From: a virus | Taxonomy: Duplodnaviria; Heunggongvirae; Uroviricota; Caudoviricetes | Reading direction: 5' to 3' (one strand) | Length of the DNA: 64,000 nucleotides | Virus record (IMG/VR): IMGVR_UViG_2713896909_000009 | Coordinates: 32,673 to 96,672 of that record | Shown: positions 53,401 to 53,849 of the stretch, piece by piece | Position numbering within the stretch: the stretch's first letter is position 1 | Layout: every line of letters starts with the position of its first letter | The notes under the pieces: generated by a model | Seen by the model: only the letters and a program-made list of their open reading frames with translations | Told to the model about the DNA's origin: nothing | The model's database searches: none | Position numbers and translations under genes: made by a program

Positions 53401-53849
53401 CCGCCAGTGGGCGTGCCGTATTGTCTCAGGAACAGGATGGCATCAAGTCGCACACCCACAGTGCCAGCGCATCAAATACTGACCTCGGTACTAAAACGAC
53501 CAGCTCATTTGATTACGGGACAAAAACGGTCAGCACGTTTAACCACGGTACAAAAACGACAAACAATACAGGAGCGCATACGCATACTGTCGGTGGTCGT
53601 TACGGTGGTGACTCCATCGGGGGTAAACAACGCGTACAGGTATCAGGAACCAACCAGGTGTCAAGCTCTGCCGGAGCACATGCCCATACTGTCGATATTG
53701 GTCAGCATAACCACACCGTAGGTATTGGTGCCCATGCGCACACTGTGGCATTGGGTGCGCACGGACATACCATCACGGTTAACGCTACTGGTAATGCGGA
53801 AAACACCGTAAAAAACATTGCATATAACTATATTGTGAGGCTTGCATGA
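50418..53849 (+). CDS. tail fibre protein (P1 S-like) with His-x-His repeat tip
   Basis: AAGGA before ATG 50418; C-terminus has [27 protein letters not shown] repeats and ends [11 protein letters not shown]. Confidence 0.8.

Follow-up and report, generated by a model that had tools for sequence, protein, structure and literature searches.

A macro-domain protein with a GAHxH tail is encoded between a needle-tipped tail-fibre gene and its chaperone gene in a caudoviral genome

Why should a macro-domain protein, encoded directly behind a tail-fibre gene, end in the same type of His-x-His (HxH) repeats as the fibre tip itself? This question was raised by a stretch of 64,000 nucleotides (nt) from a virus of the Caudoviricetes (IMG/VR record IMGVR_UViG_2713896909_000009, positions 32,673 to 96,672), which is called the window in the following. 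Three consecutive genes are of interest, encoding a tail fibre of 1143 amino acids (aa), a macro-domain protein of 289 aa (macro protein) and a tail-fibre assembly chaperone of the Tfa type. The initial annotation had noted the common repeats and had suggested that the two proteins either co-assemble or derive from an alternative fibre-tip cassette. The fibre tip turned out to be an already known module with a well-known needle. The new part is a macro domain with a unique needle-like extension that is locked into the fibre-tip cassette.

The HxH motif in the macro protein and in the fibre needle

The three repeats that had been claimed for the C-terminus of the macro protein were found within aa 251-286, namely GAHMHQ at aa 251, GAHSHG at aa 269 and GAHSHT at aa 280. 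By composition alone, the number of HxH motifs in the tail is modestly unusual (P ~0.02-0.03). A local alignment of the tail with the whole 1143-aa fibre picked the descending strand of the needle, with a score of 77 versus 34.4±5.6 for shuffled sequences (0 of 500 shuffles as high). The context I-G-A-H-x-H is common to tails and needles. The tail starts at an invariant HQxDD, and in all full-length macro genes from viral loci at least one HxH follows directly (one to three per tail in 33 distinct tails). At least one HxH was also present in almost every Escherichia, Salmonella, Erwinia, Enterobacter or Citrobacter database homolog, while the tail is otherwise unalignable. The two findings that had been named beforehand as speaking against the initial interpretation, repeats that fail to align and fibre homologs that lack them, did not turn up: the tail aligns to the needle, and the fibre homologs have HxH. 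At the level of sequence, the motif shared by needle and tail is real.

The terminal TVNATGN...NYIVRLA collar strand of the fibre is absent from the tail. The similarity was not found in the DNA of the window, where the best local nucleotide score between tail and needle was 9, compared with 8.0±1.1 for shuffles; on this basis, the idea that needle DNA was recently duplicated into the macro gene was rejected for the window. Across all loci, the best nucleotide match to a needle was that of a Salmonella-type tail, with 37 of 50 identical nt (74%) and a score of 22.5 versus a null value of 11.3±1.2, and this match is largely due to identical residues and a preference for the codon CAC. In a variant of 280 aa from E. 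albertii (P0006), nine residues between the first and the second GAHxH unit are deleted, so that their spacing has changed from 18 residues to 9, which is the period of the needle. This variant suggests that the tail may change its length in repeat-sized steps.

The fibre had been described as carrying at least six repeats of the HxH type near its end, and six HxH were located between aa 1012 and 1117 (at aa 1012, 1054, 1088, 1097, 1106 and 1115; codon starts at nt 53451, 53577, 53679, 53706, 53733 and 53760). Five of these motifs read G-x-H-x-H-T-[VI], the first one is KSHTHS, and the last four are spaced by 9 residues. The whole fibre contains 7 HxH compared with 0.57 expected (0 of 20,000 shuffles as high), and its last 130 aa contain 5 compared with 1.0 expected (P = 0.00085); these shuffle counts exclude a chance origin of the fibre motifs. 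The 9-residue spacing was found in 85 of 92 spacings of 38 related needles.

The likeness to the iron tip of T4 gp37, which had been noted from the motifs, proved to be true homology. A phmmer search of PDB sequences matched chain A of 2XGF with E 2.8e-78 over 204 aligned aa (query 30-233 versus chain 28-242), and the alignment spans the collar, both needle strands (ascending and descending) and the terminal strand. Six of the seven T4 HxH sites are in register with the fibre, the T4 site GGHTHSG being replaced by FNHGTKT. In addition, the fibre matched the tail fiber family phrog_295 (E 4e-135), and its ending NIA[FY]NYIVRLA is common to lambdoid Stf proteins, P2-like fibres and T4-like gp37. 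Seven iron atoms along the needle of T4 gp37 are coordinated by HxH motifs from its three chains, and these atoms are needed for folding; the D10 collar of T4 takes in residues 1010-1026 (PMC6957217). By this homology, nt 53440-53849 are predicted to encode an iron-binding needle of the gp37/Stf type, with an HxH every 9 residues in its descending strand. The tip loop is the presumed receptor-contacting part.

With the T4 gp37 tip (D10-D11, 2XGF) and the C-terminus of lambda Stf, the window shares a collar, a needle with HxH motifs and the terminal NIA[FY]NYIVRLA strand, as well as a downstream gene for a chaperone of the Tfa/gp38 family. It differs in the loss of one HxH of the ascending strand, in a different, slightly shorter tip loop, in its shaft, which is of the P1 S type with a gp34-like trimerisation domain, and in the extra gene between the fibre gene and the chaperone gene. 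The features of the three genes are listed in Table 1.

Table 1. Features of the fibre, macro and tfa genes (window positions in nt)
Feature	Position	Strand	Basis
Tail-fibre gene, 1143 aa	50418..53849	+	Open reading frame (ORF); Pfam Phage_fiber_2, Gp34_trimer, Collar; P1/P7 gene S homology
gp37-homologous C-terminal 204 aa (collar, needle, short tip loop, returning strand)	53235..53846	+	phmmer versus PDB
Collar domain, aa 944-991	53247..53390	+	PF07484, 39.8 bits versus cut-off 24
Needle, six HxH	53451..53768	+	Motif positions, 2XGF alignment
Short tip (head) loop between ascending and descending strands	53586..53678	+	Placed by T4 alignment
Terminal strand, 11 aa; T4 gp37 counterpart returns to collar	53814..53846	+	T4 alignment
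Macro-domain protein gene, 289 aa; ATGA (4 nt) overlap with fibre stop	53846..54715	+	ORF
Macro domain, aa 1-185	53846..54400	+	Pfam Macro, pocket motifs, Foldseek, dN/dS (ratio of nonsynonymous to synonymous substitution rates)
Four-cysteine module, aa 186-240 (C202, C208, C225, C232)	54401..54565	+	Conservation
Variable His-rich tail, aa 241-289, three GAHxH units	54566..54712	+	Motifs; HxH codons 54602, 54656, 54689
Tfa tail-fibre assembly chaperone gene (lambda gpK / P1 U type), own GAGGTGA ribosome-binding site	54740..55318	+	Caudo_TAP 111 bits; phrog_105 'tail fiber assembly'

The macro domain itself was recognized by Pfam Macro (PF01661) at aa 44-169 with 70 bits (cut-off 22), and a match to Macro_2 of 22.5 bits stayed under its cut-off of 27. 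The loops of the ADP-ribose pocket are intact, i.e. SAAN48SFGLMDG55G56V57D58 (N48-x6-G55-G56-V57-D58) and G154-A-G-C-G158; none of the motif residues varies among 34 family members, and a PDB sequence match aligns them with the corresponding loops of TTHA0132. An AlphaFold2 (AF2) model of the full-length protein had a mean pLDDT (predicted local distance difference test) of 61, with several macro-domain segments above 80. Foldseek searches with this model retrieved Poa1p/Ymx7 (1njr, E 2.9e-9) and MacroD2, macroH2A and YmdB (~1e-5). The protein matched phrog_2613, annotated as 'unknown function', with E 2.2e-136, and the RefSeq name of the 289-aa protein is 'macro domain-containing protein'. 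Full-text searches of the literature found no study of this protein family. Stand-alone proteins of the MacroD/Poa1p type (e.g. TTHA0132 2DX6, yeast Ymx7 1NJR, MacroD2, E. coli YmdB) have the same fold and the same pocket loops, N-x6-GG[VLI]D and G-x-G-x-G. In contrast to these proteins, with which identity is only ~17-28%, the phage family has a unique 100-residue cysteine-plus-HxH extension, and its gene sits in a late fibre operon.

Within this extension, C202, C225 and C232 are invariant among macro-family members, and C208 is nearly so. AF2 put beta strands into the cysteine module (pLDDT ~50-70), which is probably a small beta-hairpin, metal-binding knuckle. A model of the C-terminal module alone had a mean pLDDT of 49; the confidence of both models does not suffice for fold searches with this part, and no Pfam or PDB relative of the cysteine module was found. 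Among 1.84 billion representatives, the cysteine-plus-HxH module occurred on no other protein, the matches being fragments of the same family or repeat-protein noise. The module therefore appears to be specific to the needle-fibre context, and the idea of a general docking domain on other enzymes was rejected on the same count.

Two database entries touch the annotation of the family. One 463-aa protein (P0024, from a Logan contig of 8.4 kb) has an N-terminus like that of the plasmid-segregation proteins ParM/StbA in frame with residues ~60-300 of an E. coli-type macro protein; this fusion may have arisen as a chimera during assembly, or a P1-like plasmid may really have been rearranged. The family phrog_14717, annotated as 'tail protein', matches the fibre needle at profile positions ~1-100 and the macro domain in its remainder; adjacent or mis-called genes have probably been merged in it. 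This entry may be the reason why unrelated macro domains of jumbo phages (Klebsiella, Pseudomonas, Xanthomonas) are labelled 'tail protein', so that these misleading labels may have been seeded by the needle-linked macro family.

The macro gene in the fibre-tip cassette

A scan of viral contigs yielded 80 loci with a macro gene, and the upstream gene was readable in 75 of them. In all 75 cases, the upstream gene encodes a needle fibre with the ending NYIVRLA, mostly with five or six HxH. The fibre gene and the macro gene overlap by 4 nt (ATGA), or by 22 nt at a few loci, and a tfa gene was recovered downstream of the macro gene in most of the 75 loci. The trio of fibre, macro and tfa genes occurs in the P2-like phages Chuche and SEN4/SEN5, in the lambdoid prophage Gifsy-1 (STM2588.1n) and in P1-like plasmids, and the tip loops of the macro-carrying fibres are many and unrelated. 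Of 5426 complete E. coli genomes, 128 carry the macro gene, which also occurs in many Salmonella prophages.

In relatives without a macro gene, the fibre stop overlaps the tfa start (…GTGAGGCTGGCATAATGAC). The macro carriers read …GTGAGGCTTGCATGATTAAG… and then resume at the tfa ribosome-binding site. Compared in this way, the macro gene is a precise insertion between the fibre stop and the tfa start. In the window, its stop codon lies 24 nt before the tfa ATG. In Gifsy-1 (L002, 4871-4881) and SEN5 (L003, 4901-4911), the end of the macro gene, …SGVKNDV (stop), holds the tfa ribosome-binding site and ATG, with an overlap of 11 nt. The end of the tail appears to be partly set by the translation signals of tfa, because the last codons of the Salmonella macro genes contain them. 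No promoter-like or terminator-like site above chance was found flanking the macro gene, and its GC content equals that of the fibre genes; therefore, the macro gene appears to belong to the late fibre operon. An interpretation as a moron with its own promoter or terminator found no support in this flank scan. Judged by its conserved position, the macro gene is a passenger of the tip cassette.

Is the macro protein needed by, or matched to, the tip that it accompanies? A near-identical tip including the loop was found in the P2-like phage STYP1, in which tfa directly follows the fibre gene, and a near-identical tip was also found in the T4-like phage Lv5cm, in which gp38 is next; the loop is identical or nearly so in both, and neither has a macro gene. 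Because these two tips exist without it, the macro protein is not needed to build or use the tip, and a requirement for a tip of the window type was rejected. Furthermore, one and the same tail class was combined with at least eight unrelated tip loops, which argues that the macro protein is not matched to receptor specificity. A role as a receptor-specific adhesin was rejected on account of this missing co-variation, and no Pfam or PHROG adhesin match was found for the macro protein. The gp38 adhesin of T2 and S16 is likewise a separate protein encoded directly after gp37, where it rides on the fibre tip, and it likewise has conserved short motifs that frame variable segments. Unlike gp38, to which no match was found by sequence or by family, the macro protein shows no co-variation with the tip loop, and it is dispensable for a working tip.

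The needles and tails themselves showed some pairing: 'IYIGAHSH' tails accompany Salmonella needles with 'YIGxH', and 'IGAHSH' tails accompany E. coli needles with '[GA][IL]GAH'. E. coli-type tails scored 61 with needles of the same class and 43 with needles of the other class, whereas for Salmonella-type tails the scores were 51 and 50, i.e. without a difference. The co-variation rests on only two or three independent lineages.

Three loci outside the trio were encountered. In Salmonella phage SEN34 (L087, 3501-3698), a remnant of the cysteine module and the tail, 55.6% identical to aa 184-255, stands alone with no macro domain; it adjoins an O-acetyltransferase gene and an integrase gene and is a stray, not informative case. 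An orphan of 76 aa (P0123) resembles this remnant. The unrelated Microcystis phage Mae-JY35 (L089, 4935-5492) encodes a macro protein of 185 aa (phrog_2613, E 2e-51) without the Cys/HxH extension, and its gene has 4-nt overlaps within a block of virion-structural and ejection-type genes. This gene context indicates that macro proteins may be virion-associated in other phages, too.

Possible functions of the GAHxH tail

As a best guess, the tail would serve an accessory enzyme as a metal-bridged stalk for trimerisation or docking. Tentatively, we favour a macro protein with a short, metal-bridged homotrimeric stalk, plausibly folded by Tfa, that is accessory and not required by the fibre. Of the six ligands around a metal on the three-fold axis, each HxH would contribute two, in the manner of the needle and of phage spike tips. 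At the iron-loaded spike apex of P2 gpV and phi92 gp138, HxH motifs from three chains bind one metal on the three-fold axis and clamp the trimer; in contrast to the macro protein, the motif is found there at the end of a beta-helix spike and not after an enzyme domain. Because an HxH provides two of six ligands, a single unit on one chain could not complete a site; with one or two units, a family member would depend on three chains, which favours a homotrimeric stalk. Tfa, which folds the fibre needle, would probably fold the stalk as well, and such shared folding could explain both the location of the gene upstream of tfa and its translational coupling to the fibre gene. The macro protein would then be an accessory enzyme, or a binder of an ADP-ribose-type ligand, that is made alongside the fibre, and neither a required fibre subunit nor a chaperone.

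Several observations weigh against such a stalk. In 30 of 36 cases, the HxH motifs of the tails lie 11 or 18 residues apart, compared with 9 in the needle, and the TVxIG context that lies C-terminal to the needle motif is absent from the tails; the geometry of the tail need therefore not be needle-like. In four length classes, the ranges of dN/dS were 0.09-0.23 for the macro domain, 0.13-0.54 for the cysteine module and 0.30-0.86 for the tail, which is the least constrained part. Natural alleles with degraded HxH units, e.g. GTPTH or GAYNH, are frequent, two alleles have no tail (P0019, 255 aa; P0054, 246 aa), and one has no HxH (P0120). In both AF2 monomer models, which are uninformative on oligomers, the tail is disordered (pLDDT ~30-40). 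Finally, late expression would, to our knowledge, be unusual for a counter-defence enzyme, and we know of no substrate.

The low constraint would be expected if the tail were an evolutionary leftover, which we regard as possible, if on the unlikely side. A decaying 3' end of a fibre gene might have been fused to a captured macro gene, or the tail might have arisen by occasional gene conversion from the neighbouring needle; it would by now do little or nothing, and the macro and cysteine domains alone would be an ordinary cytoplasmic ADP-ribose-processing enzyme encoded in a fibre operon. Compared with the macro domain, the tail has the higher dN/dS, it is rich in indels and unalignable between classes, degraded and truncated alleles occur, and the nucleotide match of the Salmonella-type tail to the needle is compatible with shared ancestry. 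However, a neutral tail should lose its motif or gain stop codons over the divergence of Escherichia, Salmonella, Erwinia and Enterobacter (60-70% protein identity), whereas nearly all full-length members have retained a His-rich tail of ~20-65 residues with at least one GAHxH, the units varying in number and spacing. In addition, the dN/dS of the tail is below 1, tail and needle have no nucleotide similarity in the window, and the Salmonella-type match is accounted for largely by residue identity and codon preference.

Stable co-assembly, as the initial annotation had proposed, is in our view rather unlikely and would at most be non-essential. In that case, the HxH tail, perhaps together with the cysteine knuckle, would dock the macro protein on the collar, the needle or the fibre-Tfa complex, and virions would carry a macro domain per fibre tip, which would act at the cell surface as an additional enzyme or as a head for ligand binding. 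The absolute linkage to needle-type fibres, the ATGA overlap, which would favour equimolar synthesis, and the resemblance of the tail to a needle strand would all fit, as would the hint of needle-tail co-variation and the company of virion-structural and ejection-type genes in which the Mae-JY35 macro gene is found. Nevertheless, the near-identical tips of STYP1 and Lv5cm function without a macro gene, the tail class is independent of the tip loop, the tail is weakly constrained and sometimes absent, and a literature search for virion proteomics found none for any macro carrier. Moreover, a complete trimer of the gp37 type fills all six ligands per iron site, without an obvious vacancy for a fourth strand (PMC6957217).

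A further reading, to which we assign a low probability, links the macro protein to host defence. According to a 2026 preprint, alleles of side-tail-fibre and chaperone genes set the sensitivity of Pseudomonas phages to type II Thoeris, which signals with histidine-ADP-ribose that is read by a macro domain. If a host sensor detects the folded fibre-chaperone complex, the macro protein could for that reason be produced together with the fibre, as a trimeric enzyme, or a sponge, for ADP-ribose-derived molecules that is tethered to the fibre or the chaperone, and its needle-like tail would place the enzyme at the trigger or disguise the trigger. PADLOC found a weak match to DarG (E 0.0033 over 39 residues), and Foldseek found the DarG macrodomain with E 1.7e-4, as for any macro domain.

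It is very improbable that the protein is a metal-handling helper, whose tail and cysteine knuckle would bind Fe2+ or Zn2+ and pass the ion on to the needle during folding by Tfa, in analogy to the His-rich tails of UreE, HypB and SlyD. The protein does have a His-rich C-terminal tail and four conserved cysteines, and its co-translated neighbour is predicted, from T4 gp37 homology, to need six metal ions per trimer. However, this role would leave the macro domain, the best-conserved part, without a function, the same needle assembles without a macro protein in many phages, among them T4, lambdoid phages and STYP1, and the motif is specifically (I)GAHxH and not a generic His run. A coincidental resemblance of tail and needle is effectively refuted: three HxH in a 50-residue tail with seven His would be expected with P ~0.03, but the alignment score is far above the shuffles, most family members have kept the motif, and the macro gene is exclusively linked to needle fibres.

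Origin of the fibre and implications

The window region was 100% identical to Escherichia albertii plasmids of ~96-102 kb and 82-95% related to plasmids of like type from E. coli and E. fergusonii. From its gene content and the 89.7% identity of its fibre gene to gene S of P1 and P7, it is identified as a P1-like phage-plasmid. The start codon of the fibre gene is the ATG at 50418 (MNDVTV...), and the ATG start of the 1143-aa protein is also annotated in RefSeq relatives; the TTG start at 50331 in the ORF list is an upstream extension of the fibre frame. The match to P1/P7 gene S covers only nt 1 to ~1519-1538 of the fibre gene (to ~51955 of the window). It is followed in Pfam searches by Phage_fiber_2 repeats, by a Gp34_trimer domain at aa 700-797, i.e. 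a trimerisation domain like that of T4 gp34, and by the Collar domain. By these matches, the fibre is a three-part mosaic of a constant part of the P1 S type, a section of Phage_fiber_2 repeats and Gp34_trimer, and a tip of the gp37/Stf type, and the tip is seen to have been recombined onto the P1-type constant part at the place of the P1 invertible tip segment.

Could the tip and the macro gene stem from an alternative cassette of the P1 type, for which a comparison with the Sv and Sv' segments had been suggested? Within 50400-58000, no inverted repeat was longer than 23 nt and none involved fibre or tfa sequence, and the region contains neither a cin gene nor inverted second ORFs for a tip or a chaperone. 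The ORFs downstream of tfa encode a glycosyltransferase, an acetyltransferase, a small regulator-like protein and a holin. Derivation from a P1-style invertible alternative cassette was therefore rejected, as no inverted tip/tfa copy and no cin exist. In comparison with gene S and the C-segment of P1 and P7 (Sv, U, U', Sv', cin), the first ~1520-1540 nt are conserved, and the neighbouring P1-type R gene and the lydA-like holin gene have been kept. The P1 S homology of the window fibre ends where P1 has its cixR crossover site. In contrast to P1 and P7, the variable end consists here of a fixed gp37-type tip, the macro gene and tfa, without a second copy or cin. Read from this comparison, the P1 invertible segment has been replaced and not rearranged.

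At the place of the P1 invertible segment and cin, the minus strand carries a gene pair of low GC content (27-39%; 55373-57059), which consists of a gene of 382 aa resembling lipopolysaccharide N-acetylglucosaminyltransferases and a gene of 183 aa for an acetyltransferase of the DapH/GlmU type. The pair looks like a surface-modification moron, and in one relative an IS5-family element (ISKpn26) is inserted in this region. Upstream of the fibre gene, a P1-type baseplate/tail gene (47624-49057, 477 aa) is labelled 'bleomycin hydrolase' in the RefSeq plasmid record, which is probably a mis-annotation.

The fibre part of these results carries little weight, as the needle is a textbook module, and it is a clean case of a T4-type tip that was moved onto a P1 fibre. 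The macro protein is a useful lead, because it represents a compact, well-conserved family that is always located between a needle-type fibre gene and a chaperone gene. If the tail tethers or trimerises an enzyme by His-metal chemistry of the needle type, this would be a new way to attach cargo to phage fibres or to co-fold it with them. It would bear on engineered swaps of 'fibre + tfa' cassettes, and possibly on ADP-ribose-based immunity. Should the counter-defence reading be true, the macro protein would be the first counter-defence factor that is built into a receptor-binding cassette and travels with it among P1-, P2- and lambda-like phages.

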